Part shown: piece by piece, positions 3,008 to 12,489 of the stretch
Layout: the number at the start of each line of letters is the position of its first letter
Position numbering within the stretch: position 1 is the first letter of the stretch
From: Vulcanimicrobiota bacterium
Lineage (GTDB): Bacteria; Vulcanimicrobiota; Vulcanimicrobiia; Eremiobacterales; Eremiobacteraceae
NCBI GenBank assembly: GCA_963812135.1
Contig: CAWETU010000001.1
Location: 1,312,001-1,376,000, forward strand
Reading direction: 5' to 3'
Length of the DNA: 64,000 bases
Notes under the pieces: generated by a model
Told to the model about the DNA's origin: nothing
The model's database searches: none
What the model saw: only the letters and a program-made list of their open reading frames with translations
Translations under genes and position numbers: made by a program

Positions 3008-3274
3008 CGCGATGCTCTACCGGTTCCCCATATCGCGATCATCGATATGTTCGCGATCGCCAGCGTCGTCGCACGCTGGTGAAAGCGCAGCGCGATCGGC
3101 ATATCAATGCCGAGCGTACGGGCCTTGGGTACGGCAGAAACCGCCTGGCTCATGGGCGCGAGACCGTTTCGCCGAGCCGTAGTAGGTAGCATTTGTTGCC
3201 CTATCCCTCCCGGCATGAATCAATCCCGTGCAAACGAAACCACTCGGACTGCGTCATTGGAGGCGCATAAGGCG

Positions 3275-4219
3275 ATGGCTAAGACGATCACCAGTCCAGC
3301 AAAGCCGAAGAAGAACGGCGAGGCAAAACTGAAGAAGAACGGCGCTGCCGCCTACGCGGATGGCCGACCACAGGATCAGGTGCAATTCTTCGACGCAAAG
3401 CTGATCTTGAAGCCCGACTTTTTCGCAAGCGTGAGGGGTTTCAAGGCTTTTAGCGATCTTGTCGCCGAGGCCGCGAGCAAAGTTCCCAAGGTCACATATA
3501 CGGCTTTCGACCTCACGAAGATGCGGCCCAAGATCCGAGAGGTCATGTTCGTCGACACGGCCGACTTCCGGATGTACAACAACTCATTCATCCTGCGCCG
3601 GCGCACGATGTACCAGGACGGTTTCCCCATCAGCGATCCCGAGATCGTCGTCAAATATCGAAGCGATGATCTTGCGAAAGCCGCGGCGATCGATATCCGG
3701 CCGAATGTCTCCGGTCCATATCGCATCAAGCTCAAGGCCGAAGCGCTGCCTCTGAAAGACTCCGTGGGCGGTTATCGCATGCTGTATGCGCACAACTGCA
3801 TCATCCCGTCAAGCTCCATCCATGCGGGCGATCGCACGAACCTCCAGACCATCGCGCGCCTCATGCCCGCGCTGCGCGGCCTGATCGGCGACGCGGAGGG
3901 AAGCGTCGAACTCGTCAATTCGACGCTCGTCGAAGAAGTGCTGATGGATATCGGTACGCTCGATTTCGGCAAAGGATTCACCGCGAAGGCGAACATCTCG
4001 CTGTGGCGATCGCTGGGCGACCATCACGTCATGTGCGGCGAATTCGCGTACCAGACCAAGTTCGCGGACAAAGCCGCCGTGAATCAGAAGATCAGACAGC
4101 GCGTCGAAGAGCTCTTCATGAAGCTGCAGCTGCTCGCGACCGGCTGGTTGTTCCTCGGCACGACGAAGACCGGTCTGGTCTATCAGCTCAAAGGTAACCC
4201 GCCGCAAGCACATGAGTGA
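3275..4219 (+). CDS. Conserved hypothetical protein, CYTH/triphosphate-tunnel-like
   Basis: GGAGG RBS before ATG 3275; KLILKP, FVDTADFRMYNNSFILRRR, EIVVKYRS, EFAY and TTK resemble CYTH spacing. Confidence 0.55.
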   Translation: MAKTITSPAKPKKNGEAKLKKNGAAAYADGRPQDQVQFFDAKLILKPDFFASVRGFKAFSDLVAEAASKVPKVTYTAFDLTKMRPKIREVMFVDTADFRMYNNSFILRRRTMYQDGFPISDPEIVVKYRSDDLAKAAAIDIRPNVSGPYRIKLKAEALPLKDSVGGYRMLYAHNCIIPSSSIHAGDRTNLQTIARLMPALRGLIGDAEGSVELVNSTLVEEVLMDIGTLDFGKGFTAKANISLWRSLGDHHVMCGEFAYQTKFADKAAVNQKIRQRVEELFMKLQLLATGWLFLGTTKTGLVYQLKGNPPQAHE

Positions 4220-4823
4220 TGTCGCAACGCCGGCTGCTCCCGCTTCGGCGGAGACGCCGGCGGCGAAGGTGTCCGTCGGCGAGATATTCCTCGCATTTCT
4301 GACGATCGGCGCCACGAGCTTCGGCGGAGGCGCGGTTGCGTATCTCAGGGCCAGCCTCGTCACCAAGAACCAATGGCTCGATGACAAGAGCTTCGTCGAG
4401 CTGTTCTCGATCAGCCAATCGCTGCCGGGCCTGAACACGACGAACATGGCGATCCTCGCCGGCGACCGGCTATGCGGTTGGATGGGCGCGGTCGCGGCCG
4501 TCGTCGGCGTGATCCTCCCCGGTGCGATTCTCATGACGTTGGCAGGTGTCGTGTACGGAATGGGCGGCAATCGACCGCTCGTCACCGCAGGATTGAAGGG
4601 CGTCGCCGCGGCGGCGACGGGCCTGCTGCTTGCGACGTTTCTCCAGCTGGCGCGCAAGACGCTGCGCGGCTGGCTCGACGTGGTCTTCATCATCATCGCC
4701 GTCGTCGCGGTGAACTGGTTCCACATCTCGGTGCTTTACGCGCTCCTCGGCATCGCAGCGTTGGCGACCCTCGCCTACCGGCCGCGCTCCTCCGATACGA
4801 AACCGGAGCAAACGGCCTCATGA
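4212..4823 (+). CDS. chrA: Short-chain chromate transporter (CHR), first subunit
   Basis: IGATSFGGG and SQSLPGLNTTN motifs. Confidence 0.9.
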   Translation: MSDVATPAAPASAETPAAKVSVGEIFLAFLTIGATSFGGGAVAYLRASLVTKNQWLDDKSFVELFSISQSLPGLNTTNMAILAGDRLCGWMGAVAAVVGVILPGAILMTLAGVVYGMGGNRPLVTAGLKGVAAAATGLLLATFLQLARKTLRGWLDVVFIIIAVVAVNWFHISVLYALLGIAALATLAYRPRSSDTKPEQTAS

Positions 4824-5376
4824 ACCAAATATCCCAGCTCGTCGCCGTGTTCGCCTATCTTTCGCTGCTCACCGTCGGCGGCGGCATGGCGGCGTATCCG
4901 GAGATGGAGAACCTTACCGTCAACGTGCACCACTGGGTGACGCAAGACCAGCTGGTGCATTTCTATTCGCTCGGGCAGATGGCGCCCGGACCGAACTTGA
5001 ACATGGTCGCGGCCATCGGAGAACACGTAGCGGGAATCGCGGGAGCGATCGCCGTCCTGCTCGCGTTTTACGCCCGACCGGACTCTTCGCGCTCATCATC
5101 GGCCGGGTGTGGACACGGCTTGCGAATTGGCCGTGGCGCACCTCGATCCAGAACGGGCTATCGCCGACCGCTCTCGGTCTCATGCTCGCGGGTTTGCTAT
5201 CCTTCGGAACGACGGCCCTACGCCTGGGTCACCCTCGCGTCGCGTTCTTGGTCGGACTTGATTGGATCGCGGTCGCGATGGCCGTCTTTGTGCTCGTCAT
5301 GATGCTGCGCACCAAAGTCAATCCGGCGCTATTGGTGCTTGGCTGCGGCATCGTGGGCGCGTTCACGTTCCGCTGA
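4820..5376 (+). CDS. chrA: Short-chain chromate transporter (CHR), second subunit; frameshift near 5073
   Basis: LSLLTVGGG and GQMAPGPN, continuing in another frame as PTGLFALIIGRVW...KVNPALL; one C missing in a C-run restores it. Confidence 0.82.
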
Positions 5377-5546: not shown

Positions 5547-6770
5547 ATGGCGCGGGTAAAGCTTTACCCTAACCCCTCCCAGGCGGCCGCGCTGGGAAAG
5601 GCGCTCGACATCTGCCGCCAGCTCTATAATATCGCGCTCGAGCAGCGGCGCGACGCATGGCGTACCCGCCGGCTGCAGGTAACGCACCGTCAGCAGTATG
5701 CGCAGCTGACCGAGTTGCGTCAAAACGATCCGCGCATCGCTTCGATCTACCGCGAACTGCTTGATGCCGCGCTCCACAAGCTCGATCTCGCCTTCGCGGC
5801 ATTTTTTCGAAGAATGCGCAAGGGGGAGAAGCCCGGGTTTCCGCGTTTTTGCGCTCGTGCTCGGTACAACTGCCTCGAGTTCCCGCACGGCAACCGAGCC
5901 CTCACGCTCAGCAGGACGCAGCGCGAAGTGCGAGTGCCAGGCGTGGGTTCGGTACGGCTGCGCAAGGGGAGAGATATCGGCGCCTTCGGGCGCGCCATGA
6001 TAGTGCGTAACGCGCGCGGGTGGTATGCACTCTTCGAATGCCACCGAGAGGTCGAACCGAAATCGCCAACGGGCCGGCGAGTGGGTCTGGACCGAGGTAT
6101 TATCACGTTTGCGGCCACCAGCAATGGGGATCGGTTGACGCACCCACGCCTGGGAAATCGTAAACAAGCTCAAGTGGCCCGCTTAGCAAGGATCGTGGCG
6201 CGGCGCCGACGAGGCGGAGCAAACCGTCGCAAGGCCGTGAAGATGCTGGCAAGGGCACACGACCGATTGCGCTGGGCCAGACGAGACTTCATACACAAGC
6301 TTACGCGATCCATCGTCAACAGCCACGATTTTATCGCGATCGAAGCGCTCAACGTACGCAATATGATGCGCTCGGCCAAAGGGAGCACCCAGCAGCCGGG
6401 CAGTAACGTACGTGCGAAGGCGCGCTTGAACTTTGCGATTGCTGACGCAAGCTGGACTCTGTTTGCCTCGATGCTGCACGCCAAAGCGGAAGAAGCTGGA
6501 CGTACGGTTGTCGAGGTCGATCCTCGTTACACGAGTCAGACCTGTTCAGGGTGCAACTGGGTCGACGCCGCATCGCGTAGCTCTCAAGCGGCGTTCATCT
6601 GTACCCATTGTGGTGTGCAGCTGGACGCAGACGTCAACGCCGCCAAAGTAATACTCAAGAGGGCCGAGTTAGCGGCCTGTGGGGAGGGGCGCCGGGTTAC
6701 CGGACCTCAAAGATCCACGAAGTGCACTAGCGCCGGGGCGGACCCGGTTCGCGCGGCTTCAGCCGCGTGA
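5547..6770 (+). CDS. tnpB: RNA-guided endonuclease TnpB (IS200/IS605 family)
   Basis: KLYPNPSQ HTH; RuvC GLDRG, IAIEAL, DADVNAA; CSGC/CTHC zinc finger; true start possibly ATG 5491 via a 1-nt indel. Confidence 0.95.
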   Translation: MARVKLYPNPSQAAALGKALDICRQLYNIALEQRRDAWRTRRLQVTHRQQYAQLTELRQNDPRIASIYRELLDAALHKLDLAFAAFFRRMRKGEKPGFPRFCARARYNCLEFPHGNRALTLSRTQREVRVPGVGSVRLRKGRDIGAFGRAMIVRNARGWYALFECHREVEPKSPTGRRVGLDRGIITFAATSNGDRLTHPRLGNRKQAQVARLARIVARRRRGGANRRKAVKMLARAHDRLRWARRDFIHKLTRSIVNSHDFIAIEALNVRNMMRSAKGSTQQPGSNVRAKARLNFAIADASWTLFASMLHAKAEEAGRTVVEVDPRYTSQTCSGCNWVDAASRSSQAAFICTHCGVQLDADVNAAKVILKRAELAACGEGRRVTGPQRSTKCTSAGADPVRAASAA

Positions 6771-6811: not shown

Positions 6812-7846
6812 TTAGGCCAAGATAAGGTGCGAGTCTCCGAACTCGTGCCAGAGGTAGCCGGCCTTTAGCGCGGTCGCATACGCATGCGCGACGGAGTCCG
6901 GCCCAGCGATCGCCTCTAGCATCGCCAGATGCGACGACGTGGGCTCGTGAAAACCCGTCACAACACCGTCCACGGCGGAGACTCCCAACTGCGGTGTGAT
7001 CACAAGGTCGCTCCAGCCGCGCGATGCGATAATTCGGCCGTGCTCGTCGAGCGACGACTCCAGCGCGCGGACGACCGTCGTCCCGACCGCGATGACCCGT
7101 CCGCGATTTCGCCGCGCGCGCTGGATCGCGTGCACCGTCTCGGTGGGGACGCTATACCATTCCTCATACGGCGGTTCGTCGCGCTCGGGGCTCGAGACGC
7201 CCGCGTGCAGCGTGACGAACGCGATGTCGACGTCGCGTTCGCGCAGCCGCCCGAGCACCGCATGCGTGAACGGCCGCCCAGCTGACGGCATCTCCGCGGA
7301 GCCGGGCTCGGACGCATAGACGTTCTGATAAGTCTCCAGCGGCCAGTCGCCTGCTGCGTGGCGATATCTGATGGGCTCACCGAAGCGCGAGATGTATGAG
7401 AGGAAGGGTGCGGGCAGATAGAGGCGCGCCACCCAAAGGCGCTGCGAATCGCGATACGGCGTGAGTATCTCAGCCATGCCGCCGCCGGCGAGACGCAAGC
7501 GCTCGCGCGGCTCGACCTGTGCGTCGCGCACTTCGACCACCGTCAGGTCAGCGGGCAGCCGGGTCGAGAGATGGAGTTGGACGTTGCTCTCATCGGCGCG
7601 CCGAGCGGTAAGAGCCGCGGGAATCGTGGCCGACTGGTTGAGGACGATCAGATCGCCGGCGTCGAGCAGATCCGGCAGTTGCCGAAAGCTGGCGTGCACG
7701 TCGCGGCTGCCCGCTTTCGTCACGAGCAGCCGCACGTCGTCGCGGCCGTTGCCGCGCTCCTCGGCGGGTTGCCTTGCTTCAAGCGCGGGAGGAATGACGA
7801 ACGCTGGGCGCCGGACTTCCGGTGCGAGCACGTCAGCGGACAGCAT
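6812..7846 (-). CDS. queA: QueA-family SAM:tRNA ribosyltransferase-isomerase-like protein
   Basis: GDLIVLNQSATIPA, YQNVYA, GSAEMPSAGRPFT, AVGTTVVRALES, TGFHEP, WHEFGDSHLI. Confidence 0.88.
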   Translation of the reverse strand: MLSADVLAPEVRRPAFVIPPALEARQPAEERGNGRDDVRLLVTKAGSRDVHASFRQLPDLLDAGDLIVLNQSATIPAALTARRADESNVQLHLSTRLPADLTVVEVRDAQVEPRERLRLAGGGMAEILTPYRDSQRLWVARLYLPAPFLSYISRFGEPIRYRHAAGDWPLETYQNVYASEPGSAEMPSAGRPFTHAVLGRLRERDVDIAFVTLHAGVSSPERDEPPYEEWYSVPTETVHAIQRARRNRGRVIAVGTTVVRALESSLDEHGRIIASRGWSDLVITPQLGVSAVDGVVTGFHEPTSSHLAMLEAIAGPDSVAHAYATALKAGYLWHEFGDSHLILA

Positions 7847-8552
7847 GAACCGCGAGCTCCTGGGCTTTGTAACGGCCCGAGGCAATACCCTGATCTTCCA
7901 AGAGCGCGACGATCGCGGGCGCGACGACGCGGGCCGGCGGCAGCTCGGAGAGATCGACCCCGGGCTCGGCCAGCTGATGCATCGGCGTGTTCATGTCGCC
8001 GGGATCGACGATCAGCACGCGCACGCCGCTGTCCTCGAGCTCTGCGATCAGCGTGTTTGAGATGTGCTCGAGTGCGGCTTTGCTGGCGCCATAGCCGCCC
8101 CAACCCGGATACGAGTTCACGCCGGCATCGGAGCTGACGTTGATGATCGTGCCGTCGCGTCGTTCGCGCATTCCGGGCAAGACCAGCTGCGCCAAGTGCA
8201 GCGGCGCCAAGACGTTGACCCGCATGATGTGCTCGAGGTCCTGCCATCCGAGCGAATCGAGCCGCGGCATCGGACTTGGCCCCAATTCCGATGCGTTGTT
8301 GATCAAGGCATCGATGCGGCCGAAGCGGCGCAACCCCTGCGCCACAATAGTCTCAGCGTCTTCGCTGACGTCGGCGGCGAGCGAGACGACATCCGTGTGT
8401 TCGCGCATCGGCGCGGTCGCGCGCTCGAGCGCGGCGGCGCCGCGCGCCGCGACGATCAGGCGGGCGCCCCGCCTCGCGAGCAGCAAGGCCGTCTCATAGC
8501 CGAGACCGCTGGACGCGCCGGTGATGAGAACCACTGAATCTTTGATTGTCAT
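7833..8552 (-). CDS. Short-chain dehydrogenase/reductase
   Basis: TGASSGLG, INNAS, YGASK; overlaps queA-like start. Confidence 0.93.
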   Translation of the reverse strand: MTIKDSVVLITGASSGLGYETALLLARRGARLIVAARGAAALERATAPMREHTDVVSLAADVSEDAETIVAQGLRRFGRIDALINNASELGPSPMPRLDSLGWQDLEHIMRVNVLAPLHLAQLVLPGMRERRDGTIINVSSDAGVNSYPGWGGYGASKAALEHISNTLIAELEDSGVRVLIVDPGDMNTPMHQLAEPGVDLSELPPARVVAPAIVALLEDQGIASGRYKAQELAVHAVR

Positions 8553-8610
8553 ACGGTGAGTATGCGCCATGCGCGCAGCCAGTGCCATCGTGCAGTCGAG
8601 CAGGCGGCGG

Positions 8611-8628
8611 CCTGTCCGATCGGACAGG
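8611..8628. promoter_or_regulatory. Perfect 18-bp palindrome, candidate operator
   Basis: CCTGTCCGATCGGACAGG in divergent intergenic region. Confidence 0.65.
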
Positions 8629-8714
8629 GATGGTCGAATCCGTACGAACATATGACCGGATGGAACTTCTCGTGTTCGTGAGAACGTTCTCTGACGGGAA
8701 GGGTTAGGTATTTC

Positions 8715-9512
8715 ATGCTGCTTGAAATTATCGCCGCTTCAATCTTCGCGTTTGCCACCAACACAGTGCCGGCCAACGCGCCGCAGCCGGCGACACAGCC
8801 GCTTCCAAAGCTCACATGCGCCGGCTTCGGCTTGAAGGAAGTGATCATCATCGATAACGATCGATTCCCAGTGCCGGCCGGCACGATCGTGGAGTGGCAA
8901 CTTCCGGCGGAAACGCATCTTGTAGGCGGCGGTGACGTCTACTTCCCGCCAGCGAGCGGGTTCTACGAGTTCCAACAGCCGCTGATCCCAGGGGGTCAGT
9001 TCGCCCTCAACGCGCCCCTGCCCGCGCCTGCGTCAGGCGGGCCGGGAGGGCCGCAGCCTCCGCCGGAACTAGTGGCGCTCGTTATTGAGTTGTTTCGCGG
9101 CTGCAACATAAGTTACTCGACGCGCGCCGCGATGATGGCCCAACAGATGCAAGTGCATAGCATCGTCGCGCTCATGCCCGCCACGCCGACGGGAGTGTCT
9201 GTACGCCGCACGGACGCGAACACGGTGCGCGTGGCATGGAACGGCGGTCTGGCCACCGCCCATTTCTCGATCTACGACCTGACGACCGCGTCGAGTCCGC
9301 CGAACAGCTACCATGGCTGGCAAAACCCGGTGACGGTCGCCGGCAACGTTCTCACATCGACCGTATCGATTCCGGCGGCGACGAAACCGCAAACCAACTA
9401 TTATATGGTGTGCGCCGCAAACGCCAACGCGAGCATCGTCAATTGTTCGGCACCCGCGGTCGAGAGCGCCCTCCCGTACGCCGCACCGCATCCGCTCGTG
9501 CAGCCGCATTAG
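8715..9512 (+). CDS. Secreted protein with C-terminal fibronectin type III-like domain
   Basis: Signal peptide; PATPTGVSV...VRVAW...YYMVCAANA. Confidence 0.65.
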   Translation: MLLEIIAASIFAFATNTVPANAPQPATQPLPKLTCAGFGLKEVIIIDNDRFPVPAGTIVEWQLPAETHLVGGGDVYFPPASGFYEFQQPLIPGGQFALNAPLPAPASGGPGGPQPPPELVALVIELFRGCNISYSTRAAMMAQQMQVHSIVALMPATPTGVSVRRTDANTVRVAWNGGLATAHFSIYDLTTASSPPNSYHGWQNPVTVAGNVLTSTVSIPAATKPQTNYYMVCAANANASIVNCSAPAVESALPYAAPHPLVQPH

Positions 9513-9524
9513 GATCAGGATGCA

Positions 9525-11282
9525 TCAGAGGAGGCGGCGGCGCGCGGCAACAGCGACCGCCTGGGCCCGATTGTCGGCGCCGAGCTTGGTCATCACGGAG
9601 TTGAGGTGGAACTTCACCGTGCGTTCGGCGATGTCCATGCGGCCCGCGATCTGCTTGTTCGAAAGCCCGTCGGCTACGAAGCGCAACACTTCCCGCTCGC
9701 GCACGGTCAACGCCGCCGGCGCCGGCTCGCGGACCTCCGCCGCCAGCACCGCGGCGATGGGCGGAGGGAGGAACGAACCGCCGGCATAGACCTCGCGGAT
9801 GGCGCGGGCTACTTCGGTCGCCGGTGCGCCCTTGAGGATGTAGCCGCGCGCGCCGGCGCGCACCGCGCCGACGATCTTGTCGTCGTCGGCATACGCGGTG
9901 AAGATGACGACGCGCGCGTCCGGCATCGCCCGCGCGAGCTCGCGCACCGCCTGCACGCCGCTCAGACCCGGCATCTCGAAATCGAGCAACACGACATCCG
10001 GCCGCCATTGTGCGCCGTGCGCGATGAGATCCTCGGTTGAGCCCGTGGCGCCGACGATCTCGAGATCCTGCTCGCCGTCCAGGGCCGCCGTCAGGCCTTC
10101 GCGGACAACCGGATGATCATCGACGAGCGCGACCCGGATCATCGCAGTCGCGGCCGCCACCGGCACCGTGACCGCGACGGTGGTGCCGCGGCCGCGCGAG
10201 CTCGCGATCTTCAGCGAGCCGCCGGCGAGCTGCGCGCGCTCGCGCATCCCGATGACGCCTTGACCCGACCCGCGCGACGACCGGCGATAGCCGAGGCCGT
10301 CGTCGTGCACCTGGAGCGTCGCGCGGTTGCCGCGTTTCGACAAAGTGATCGCGACCGCCGTGGCGCGCGCGTGCTTGTCGACATTCGTGAGGGCCTCCTT
10401 CGCGATGGCGAGCAGCTCGCTCTCGACGGATGCCGGCAGGTCGAATTGAGCGGCCTGCACGCGCACCTGCACGCCCGTGCGCGACGTGAACGATCGCGCG
10501 AGCGACTCCAAACCAGTTGCAAGCGGCTCGCCCGCCCGCGTGGCGCCGCGCAGCGACTGCATCGAACCGCGCGCCTCGCCGATGCCTTCACGCGCGACGT
10601 CGAGGGCCCGCGCGAGTTCGCCACGTGCGCGGTCGCTCGCGCCATCGAGGTGCTTGAGCGCTCCCTCTAAGTGCAAGGCGATCGCAGTGAAGCGCTGCGC
10701 CAGCGTGTCGTGGATCTCGCGCGCGAGCCTGGTCCGCTCCTCGATCCGCGCGAGACGCGCGCCTTCGCCCGCCAGCCGCATGCGCTCGATCGTCGCGCCG
10801 GCTTGCAGCGCGATCGTCTCGAGCAAACGCAGCTCACCTTTCGAGAGGCGGCGCCATTTCGGGCCGGTGAGGTTCATGATGCCGAGCGGCTTGCCGCGAA
10901 AATACAGCGGCACGCTCGCATGGTAGCGCAGGCCGCCGGTCAGCTCGGTGTGTTCGCCCGCGACCGCGGGTGCGAGCCGGCTGCACTCGATGACGTCGAC
11001 ATTGTGCGGCGAGAGTTTGCCGTCGCGGAAGTCCTGCGTGCATTGACACCAGCTGCCCGCCATGCGCACCGGTTCCCGCAAGTATGGAGGAAGATTGTGC
11101 GCGGCCACATTGTAAAAACGATTGGTGTCAGGATCGATCAGCCAAATCCAACCGGTGCGCAATCCGAGTAGGCCTGTGACGATCGCGAGCATGCGCTCGA
11201 GCGCCCGCCCGAGGTCGGTGGCGGCGTTGAGCTCGTCGGCGATGGCGTACAATATGCGCAGCTCTTTCGCGCGAGCTTGCAT
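9525..11282 (-). CDS. GAF sensor histidine kinase (HisKA_3) read in frame into a NarL/LuxR response regulator (RR part 9525-10142)
   Basis: GAF with WCQC...IECSRL, ERTRLAREIHD, EALTNVDKHA, DDGLG; then MIRVALVDDHPVVREG, LLDFEMP, GLSNKQIA HTH. Confidence 0.9.
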   Translation of the reverse strand: MQARAKELRILYAIADELNAATDLGRALERMLAIVTGLLGLRTGWIWLIDPDTNRFYNVAAHNLPPYLREPVRMAGSWCQCTQDFRDGKLSPHNVDVIECSRLAPAVAGEHTELTGGLRYHASVPLYFRGKPLGIMNLTGPKWRRLSKGELRLLETIALQAGATIERMRLAGEGARLARIEERTRLAREIHDTLAQRFTAIALHLEGALKHLDGASDRARGELARALDVAREGIGEARGSMQSLRGATRAGEPLATGLESLARSFTSRTGVQVRVQAAQFDLPASVESELLAIAKEALTNVDKHARATAVAITLSKRGNRATLQVHDDGLGYRRSSRGSGQGVIGMRERAQLAGGSLKIASSRGRGTTVAVTVPVAAATAMIRVALVDDHPVVREGLTAALDGEQDLEIVGATGSTEDLIAHGAQWRPDVVLLDFEMPGLSGVQAVRELARAMPDARVVIFTAYADDDKIVGAVRAGARGYILKGAPATEVARAIREVYAGGSFLPPPIAAVLAAEVREPAPAALTVREREVLRFVADGLSNKQIAGRMDIAERTVKFHLNSVMTKLGADNRAQAVAVAARRRLL

Positions 11283-11336
11283 GGTGCCGCGAGTTCGGTC
11301 CCGAACGCTCTTTGTCCGCCCCGAAAGGATGCGATC

Positions 11337-11906
11337 ATGGCCGGTAAGATCACGTGGGTTCCGACTCTTGATGACGCGCTCGCCCAGTCCAAAGGTTCCG
11401 GCAAGCTCGTGCTGCTGGATTTTTTCAGCCCTACCTGAGGGGGCTGCAAAGCGCTGGATACCGTGACGTATCCACAGACCTTCGTCCAAGACATCATCAA
11501 CGAGTTTTGCGTCCCCGTGCAGATCAACAATTCACTTGACGAGAACAAGCCATTGCTCACGCGTTTCAGGCACATCTGGACGCCCGATCTGCGCGTGCTT
11601 GACACCGATGGGTACGAACTCTATCGCTGGAACGGCTATCTGCCGCCGGCGGAATTTGCCGCACAGACGCTGACCGCGCTCGGTCTGGCGCGGTTGCGCT
11701 TGCGGCAATTCGACCAGGCGCAGGGCCACTACACCGACGTGCTGCGCCGCTTTCCGACGTCGTTTGCGGCGCCCGAAGCGGCCTATTTCCTCGCCGTGAC
11801 CAACTACCGCAGCTCCGGCGAAGCGAATGCGCTGCTCCACGGCTGGCACGATCTCGAGAAAACGTATCCCACGAGCGAGTGGACGGCGAAGCAGAACTTC
11901 GACTGA
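11337..11906 (+). CDS. Thioredoxin-like selenoprotein (UGGC) with C-terminal TPR-like helices
   Basis: ATG 11337 in frame with ORF 11463-11906; VLLDFFSPT-TGA(11436-11438)-GGCKAL matches CxxC; downstream hairpin. Confidence 0.85.
11455..11474 (+). promoter_or_regulatory. Putative bacterial SECIS hairpin
   Basis: tggatac-cgtgac-gtatcca; loop starts 23 nt after UGA. Confidence 0.6.
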
Positions 11907-11910
11907 CGCG

Positions 11911-12489
11911 CTAGTCCAGTCCGATCCATTCGCGGATCTGCCGCGCCACGCCCTCGGCTGATGGCGGGTCGTAGTTCGACAAGACGACGAGCGTATAGCC
12001 GCTTGCGGGATCGATCTCAAGATCGGCGTTGATGCCGGGTGCACCGCCCGCGACTCCGATACCCTCGCCGAGGACGGAACGCGTGCCCGCAGGGTCGAGC
12101 AGCTTCCCGCTCTCAAGCGCAGCGCTGTTGCCGATCGTATCGTCGTGCGAGAGCTTGCGCTGAGCGACGAGCTGTTCGACCGCGATGCGCGTCATAAGCT
12201 TGTTGATCGAACCCAGATTGAACCGCATGTCGAGTGTGTTCGGCGCGGCGTACTCCTTGCTCGCCATGCCATAGGCGCCGCTGAACACGACATCGCCATG
12301 TCGAGCGAGCACGACGACACCTGAAAACGCGTCGGCGAGCGCTTGCGTCGCCAAGTACGACCTGATGCGTGCGGCAAGGTCCGCCGGCACGGGCGGCTGC
12401 GTTTGCGCGGCGACCGTTTTCGAAGGCGCCGCTGCCATGAGAACGGCCAGCGCGATGACAGCCAGCGCCGCACGGCGTATCGCCTTCAT
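11911..12489 (-). pseudogene. Serine hydrolase/beta-lactamase family protein with large in-frame internal deletion
   Basis: FSGVVVLA, FNLGSINK (SxxK), then DDTIG jumps to ALESGKLL and GGAPG; LLxHxSG and YSN regions absent. Confidence 0.72.

Follow-up and report, generated by a model that had tools for sequence, protein, structure and literature searches.

A QueA-like paralogue paired with a short-chain dehydrogenase beside a probable redox-sensing two-component system and a selenoprotein gene in a Vulcanimicrobiota bacterium

A stretch of 64,000 nucleotides from the genome of a Vulcanimicrobiota soil bacterium (contig CAWETU010000001.1, positions 1,312,001 to 1,376,000 of the forward strand), referred to here as the window, has been analysed with respect to the genes encoded between positions 6812 and 11906. 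The host genome comprises 2.79 Mb in 6 contigs and is 98% complete, and the closest named homologues of the genes in the window carry the labels Eremiobacterota or Eremiobacteraceae. The minus strand encodes a cytoplasmic kinase made up of GAF, HisKA_3 and HATPase domains (10139..11282), a response regulator of the NarL/LuxR type (9525..10142), a classical short-chain dehydrogenase/reductase (SDR; 7833..8552) and a paralogue of QueA (6812..7846), the last two genes overlapping by 14 nt. A selenocysteine-containing protein of thioredoxin fold (11337..11906) is encoded divergently on the plus strand, and the ATG codons of the kinase (11282, minus strand) and of the selenoprotein (11337, plus strand) are separated by 54 bp. 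A perfect palindrome of 18 bp (8611..8628) is situated ~67 bp upstream of the SDR start. The divergent pair, the coupling of the SDR and QueA-like genes, the perfect palindrome upstream of the SDR and a gene for a secreted protein between the regulator and the SDR (8715-9512, plus strand) had all been described in an original prediction made from the sequence alone, and are borne out by the current analysis. We lean towards the view that two unrelated units lie side by side in this region, namely a sensor-controlled SDR-QueA-like cassette and the gene of a selenocysteine thioredoxin with tetratricopeptide repeats (TPR).

The QueA-like paralogue comprises 344 aa, starts with MLSAD and matches PF02547 with 253 bits. 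It scores below the equivalog cut-offs of NF001140 (197 against 324 bits) and TIGR00113 (163 against 267 bits). A predicted model with a predicted local distance difference test score of 91.9 has the QueA fold, with Foldseek E-values of ~1e-25 to 1VKY, 1WDI and 1YY3. The PDB matches of the paralogue, three by sequence and four by structure, are all QueA, and the ESM Atlas yielded PF02547 clusters only. A quick tree places 92 paralogues and 13 canonical QueA proteins on opposite sides of a 100% branch, and a comparison of these sequences reveals fixed replacements of AAPTAGLHF by EMPSAGRP, PLPPY by PIRY, TNFHLP by TG.HEP and YRF.SYGD by YLWHEFGD. The paralogues have gained invariant Glu, His and Arg residues and have lost basic residues conserved in canonical QueA (at the R74, R79 and R333 positions), and they are more acidic, with a median isoelectric point of 5.9 compared to 6.8. 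The paralogue belongs to a separate clade with remodelled motifs, distinct from canonical QueA. No study of the paralogue or of the cassette has been found in the literature covered, which excludes most subscription journals, and to this extent the combination is uncharacterised as had been anticipated.

The conservation of the cassette has been surveyed in 61 genomes, comprising the genome under study and 60 relatives, three of them unpublished. A QueA-like gene with at least 48% identity is encoded in 27 of the 61 genomes, 26 of which possess a second match of the canonical type. Among the 20 loci retrieved from the 26 relatives carrying the gene, the order kinase, regulator, SDR and QueA-like gene is complete in 16, two loci are truncated at the end of a contig, and the remaining two carry a divergent soxR instead. 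The SDR of the current genome has 239 aa with the motifs TGASSGLG and YGASK (adh_short, E-value 2.6e-46). Of 80 wider paralogue loci, four of which repeat loci of the relatives, 75 have an SDR match upstream of the paralogue. The conserved neighbours of the SDR-QueA-like pair include no accessory gene that hints at the substrate, nor any for a transporter or for making an acceptor, and the insertions between regulator and SDR vary from locus to locus. The cassette is a real variant of a known enzyme family, hitherto undescribed, and its link to redox sensing can be tested.

Canonical queA and tgt are both encoded elsewhere in this genome, as was found by the genome search that the original prediction had proposed. 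Its remark that tgt is absent from the window is correct for the window and is irrelevant in view of these two genes. A survey of 50 of the 80 wider loci, picked because their contigs were longer, failed to find tgt in 25 of the 50 paralogue-carrying genomes, including 11 of 11 named isolates, and all 15 genomes among the 50 with a canonical queA over the cut-off have tgt. A second survey covered 151 evenly drawn Actinomycetota genomes with a threshold of at least 158 bits for the paralogue. Here tgt is present in 7 of 35 carriers of the paralogue (five of them partial matches and one from an unpublished genome) compared to 66 of 66 carriers of canonical-type queA, a contrast that is large even though kin are not independent and some of the genomes are incomplete. 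Twenty of these 35 loci were retrieved, and the WHEFGD motif and an upstream SDR are found in all 20. Because tgt is so sparse among the carriers of the paralogue and universal among those of canonical queA, preQ1-tRNA is unlikely to be the substrate, and we regard a substrate other than Tgt-made preQ1-tRNA as highly probable. The clade, the motifs and the distribution of tgt lend support to the earlier suggestion in this direction. Eight Solirubrobacterales-type genomes (G063, G064, G070, G072, G079, G080, G083 and G088) encode the paralogue and a lower-scoring tgt with no canonical queA; the tgt of these genomes is perhaps a queuine-salvage Tgt.

The GAF domain of the kinase has the motif C79-x-C81-x18-C100 together with H121. 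All four residues are invariant in 121 of 121 kinases (close homologues, at least 60%). The regulator, with 205 aa, is composed of REC and GerE domains according to domain searches, and its orthologues, 42-77% identical, are encoded immediately downstream of the kinase in the relatives. The soluble GAF-HisKA_3-HATPase architecture with an adjoining NarL regulator is that of AirS-type systems. A search of the kinase GAF domain against PDB gave no match, and no solved relative of the domain was found. The conserved residues suggest that a redox cofactor, most likely an iron-sulphur (Fe-S) cluster, is likely to be bound by the GAF domain. What stands of the oxygen- or thiol-responsive kinase proposed originally is a probable redox two-component system; sensing of oxygen or thiols in particular was deduced from the conserved cysteines only.

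The palindrome at 8611..8628 is a probable operator of the response regulator. Perfect palindromes of at least 18 bp number 73 in this genome, and the idea that the palindrome is significant on its own was rejected on this ground; its conservation is what counts. It recurs with at most 2 mismatches in 14 of the 17 relatives' loci having the regulator, and its distance to the SDR is equal within 3 bp in 15 of the 17. In loci with Dos-type, SoxR or SufR-type regulators the best match has at least 3 mismatches. The same box is found in loci of Chloroflexota, Acidobacteriota and Latescibacterota. Where the box is present with no kinase nearby, a Cys-GAF kinase is encoded elsewhere in 5 of 5 tested genomes (one, G112, unpublished), and in none of 5 tested genomes whose loci have Dos, SoxR or SufR regulators. 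Since the position of the box is conserved and the box co-occurs with the kinase, the regulator would be expected to bind at 8611-8628 and to activate the SDR and QueA-like genes. A hexamer resembling a -10 element (8559..8564, minus strand) lies right before the SDR start and can be recognised by eye ahead of the SDR in most relatives. A sigma-70 scan upstream of the SDR revealed no full promoter, and the SDR transcript may be leaderless or have a short leader.

Four types of sensor, unrelated to one another, accompany the pair across phyla in the wider collection. A sensor gene is encoded within 6 kb in 59 of the 80 loci, a raw count with no background rate beside random genes, and these comprise 25 of Dos type, 18 SufR-like, 12 Cys-GAF and 4 SoxR; L061, a false regular-expression match to the Cys-GAF kinase, was removed from this tally. 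Loci with full flanks have such a gene in 47 of 52 cases. In a second set of 20 loci, drawn after the idea had been formed, a sensor gene is present in 12 (Dos-type 5, SoxR 5, Cys-GAF 2); in five further loci a box of the Dos or SoxR type can be made out by eye, and the last three (L258-L260) lack both a sensor gene nearby and a box that could be recognised. These three share another motif upstream of the SDR with no recognised regulator nearby, possibly representing a fifth regulator type. Each sensor group has, by eye, its own palindrome upstream of the SDR, and a quick tree requires at least 4 changes for SoxR, 3 for the Dos type and 2 for the SufR-like type.

The HP motif of the DosS/DosT type, whose His we take to be the haem ligand, is found in 25 of the 80 loci, and the best PDB matches of the kinase of one locus (L093) are 2vzw (8.5e-31) and DevS (1e-27), with similarity to the GAF-A domain of DosS/DosT. 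The SoxR regulators match TIGR01950 with 197 bits against a cut-off of 117 in the two scanned, and CxxCGCLSxxxC is present in 14 of 14. Three Cys and a Glu are retained in 17 of 18 SufR-like regulators. In 17 Acidimicrobiia-type loci (L042-L088) the SufR-like regulator is coupled directly downstream of the QueA-like gene, in L096 it is divergent and upstream of the pair, and all these loci have an AT-rich palindrome ahead of the SDR.

The selenoprotein (189 aa) has a thioredoxin-like UxxC motif with the selenocysteine (Sec) at position 34, encoded by TGA at 11436-11438 in the context PT-U-GGC. PF13098 is the top match and is over the cut-off; TPR_16 is a weak match below it. The UGA is retained at codon 34 in 21 of 21 genomes bearing an orthologue and in 77 of 79 metagenome loci, the remaining 2 ending before this codon. 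A hairpin resembling a selenocysteine insertion sequence (11455..11474, plus strand) begins 17 nt past the UGA with a conserved stem of 6-7 bp. Its 6 inner pairs are kept in 20 of 20 sequences with one compensatory and three G-U changes, and it is 90% paired, whereas slid partners give 26-52%; among 500 shuffles 19 reach this value, so that covariation by itself is weak. The genome encodes tRNA-Sec, selB and selD over the cut-offs, and a selA-like gene is seen by eye beside selB. Among the best 120 listed homologues, 119 are products of 123-150 aa covering at most 79% of the selenoprotein, and the sole full-length one has a Trp at the Sec site that looks like a misread TGA. No close orthologue with Cys was found among the 79 loci or the 120 listed matches. 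The protein is a true selenoprotein of a listed family.

From the gene content, the conservation, the motifs and the linkage we infer a course of events in which cofactor, signal, direction of control and substrate would be as follows. The GAF domain of the kinase would bind a redox cofactor, with an Fe-S cluster on C79, C81 and C100 as the most likely candidate and H121 perhaps as its fourth ligand, and the kinase would phosphorylate the NarL-type regulator, which would switch on a short-leader transcript of the SDR and QueA-like genes. The SDR and the paralogue would form a two-step pathway. The paralogue may cleave S-adenosylmethionine (SAM) to adenine and methionine and place a C5 unit derived from the ribose on a small-molecule amine that would accumulate under redox or oxygen stress. 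This acceptor would be made, or the product reduced, by the SDR with NAD(P)H. The Sec-thioredoxin-TPR protein would be a free-standing thiol-disulphide oxidoreductase that owes its place next to the kinase to a rearrangement within this species. The explanation in two units is, taken whole, rather more probable than not. The transfer of SAM ribose to a small-molecule amine coupled to a redox step of the SDR is put forward tentatively.

The arrangement of the genes in this strain admits two other readings. According to the original prediction the selenoprotein belongs to the redox module and tunes the sensor, an effect that would be exerted through the cysteines of the kinase. The two genes are divergent over 54 bp, their junction is bridged by an independent contig of sequencing run X2 (10960-11374) and by the metagenome locus L164 (the comparison of runs used contigs only, and the one RNA run, which had a small share, carries no information on expression), and a UxxC oxidoreductase could act in trans on the GAF cysteines. 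However, the lack of linkage in relatives that the original prediction had itself named as refuting it was observed: the kinase is missing beside the thioredoxin gene in 19 of 19 thioredoxin loci of the relatives and in 78 of the 79 metagenome loci, 47 of which had more than 1.2 kb upstream; the remaining locus, L164, is of a near-identical strain with a 96% identical kinase. No thioredoxin gene occurs in the 80 cassette loci, and each gene is often found without the other: the thioredoxin is encoded in 8 of 22 kinase genomes and the kinase in 8 of 21 thioredoxin genomes. In the 7 other genomes with both (one being the unpublished G016) the two are on different contigs or more than 140 kb apart, and in two genomes of the same genus (L142, L144) the thioredoxin gene stands beside the genes of its other flank. 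Three genomes of one genus (G058, G041, G053) have the thioredoxin 7-9 kb from a SoxR-SDR-QueA-like cassette with unrelated genes between; the two are 400 kb apart in a fourth genome and others have only one of them, and this proximity is an arrangement of one clade. A place for the selenoprotein in the module is accordingly very improbable; its adjacency to the kinase is real in this species but recent, and it is a chance neighbour. The second reading concerns the kinase and regulator, which in this assembly read as a single frame of 585 aa. This frame is open, and the closest run (X1) has no contig across the junction, leaving room for a private mutation that would make a hybrid sensor of one protein in this strain. 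Against this, the two genes are separate in 16 of 16 relatives having both, with kinases of 355-405 aa in 15 of them and a frame that is broken in the sixteenth, and P0003, 99% identical across the first 180 aa of the kinase, ends at 380 aa. The frames are joined by an extra base near 10146, and at 10146 a run X3 contig is one base shorter. Breaks of a single base also occur elsewhere in the assembly, in a chromate transporter gene (5071, where X1 differs) and in canonical queA (contig C1:1552439-1553450), split over two frames here and intact in 5 of 5 genomes of the same genus. For these reasons the fusion is probably an assembly error, a genuine hybrid is unlikely, and the hybrid was rejected as a novelty in favour of a one-base insertion.

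With the cassette taken as a unit of its own, its substrate can likewise be read in other ways. The paralogue could serve as a back-up of QueA induced by stress, or could act in the manner of QueA on another RNA, or on free preQ1 or queuine in salvage, since it has the same fold with many common invariant residues, since the current genome and 25 of the 50 carriers encode tgt, and since the eight Solirubrobacterales-type genomes have tgt and the paralogue without canonical queA. This is doubtful in view of the retention of the paralogue in the 28 of 35 carriers where tgt was not found, the loss of the conserved basic residues with the fall in isoelectric point, and the nearly constant pairing with the SDR. 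To our knowledge the queuosine pathway does not use such an SDR. It could also be argued that the function of the pair is the disposal or recycling of SAM, or of a damaged SAM or ribose product, with no external acceptor when the oxygen status changes. QueA chemistry frees adenine and methionine (PMC10491745); sensors of both hypoxia and oxidation type would fit damage control as housekeeping, and the surroundings of the pair have no conserved gene for a transporter or for making an acceptor. However, the pair is not clustered with salvage genes, and we hold this disposal role to be about as improbable as the back-up or salvage role; the amine as acceptor is favoured over both.

Several points weigh against the explanation by a redox-controlled cassette with its own substrate. 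No sensor gene of the four types is found nearby in 21 of the 80 loci and in 8 of the 20 of the second set. The SufR-like regulators score below the TIGR02702 cut-off in 5 of 5 cases (73-125 against 179 bits) and are SufR-like only. As tgt is present in this genome and in its relatives, the gene content there allows a role on tRNA. The four sensors also lack a common sign: DosS and DosT respond to hypoxia and nitric oxide, SoxR to oxidation and SufR to the loss of its cluster. According to PMC8774646, AirS works in its oxidised state and loses its activity on exposure to peroxide or nitric oxide. Since these systems respond with different signs, the signal is not simply oxidative stress. The kinase has three of the four cysteines of the AirS motif C-x7-C-x-C-x17-C (PMC4601167), with no upstream Cys and a spacer of 18 or 19. 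How QueA itself binds SAM is unknown (PMC10491745).

The labels of QueA carried by this tgt-independent sister clade in Streptomyces and many soil bacteria wrongly imply the synthesis of queuosine, and the clade points to a new reaction of SAM. Its repeated pairing with four unrelated redox sensors indicates conditions worth testing. That the SDR-QueA-like pair constitutes a widespread undescribed SAM-ribosyl (sulphonium-ylide) pathway on a small-molecule or protein amine, the first QueA chemistry outside tRNA and connected independently in different lineages to redox sensors of four kinds that use Fe-S or haem, is a conceivable proposal whose chances we place a little under even. The contribution of the selenoprotein is confined to a correction of annotation.

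The other genes of the region lie outside the cassette. The secreted-type protein (8715..9512, plus strand), encoded between the regulator and the operator, belongs to no family: it has no Pfam or NCBIfam match and no counterpart in the 20 loci of the relatives or in the 80 wider loci. Contigs from four sequencing runs cover parts of its gene, which is a private insertion. Just past the QueA-like gene, on its downstream side, lies a TnpB gene of an IS200/IS605-type element (5547-6770); in run X1, contigs connect 5374 with 6810 and 5455 with 6654, implying that the element is missing or shorter in related strains. A pair of short chromate-transporter genes (4212-5376) has a frameshift in its second member at 5071; an X1 contig carries an additional base there, so that the split is probably an assembly error. 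A gene at 3107-4219 encodes a product of ~314 aa with no Pfam match. On the other side, a serine-hydrolase gene of the beta-lactamase fold (11911-12489, 192 aa) has an apparent internal deletion; its homologue in L164 measures ~980 nt, and run X1 diverges at 12127.

Among the known systems, the selenoprotein shares the UxxC motif with the PF13098 selenoprotein family listed in PMC9312934 and PMC13188914, and adds TPR-like helices at the C-terminus, which the accessible parts of these papers do not mention. The kinase resembles the [2Fe-2S] GAF kinase of the AirSR (YhcSR) system of Staphylococcus aureus in its soluble GAF-HisKA_3 organisation, its C-x-C-x17/18-C motif and its LuxR-type regulator, and differs in its local target, the SDR-QueA-like operon. 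AirS itself was compared by its published motif; the alignment used a Bacillus homologue with C-x-C-x17-C, which aligns over the GAF domain with an E-value of 4e-27 and precedes genes for a regulator and an azoreductase. No enzyme other than QueA is known to use SAM as ribosyl donor, and the mechanism and substrate binding of QueA are unresolved (PMC10491745). Compared to QueA (PF02547; TIGR00113; PDB 1VKY, 1WDI, 1YY3), the paralogue has the same fold and length and the invariants LH.G, GTT..R.LE and GD; it is distinguished by its independence of tgt, its pairing with an SDR and a redox regulator, and its remodelled motifs. The closest parallel by annotation, as opposed to sequence, is SCO1801-SCO1804 of Streptomyces coelicolor, where a regulator, a kinase, an oxidoreductase and an enzyme listed simply as QueA are encoded in a row (PMC9739842, PMC4932002 and PMC3897704); no study of the four genes as a unit was found in the sources covered. 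These four genes rise together in old liquid cultures (log2 1.3-2.6) and little on solid medium (0.2-0.5); the flanking chpE rises more (7.2), so that the co-induction is weak evidence. This row of genes offers a tractable model. The corresponding kinases of related Actinomycetes belong to the DosS type, as opposed to the Cys-GAF type described here.

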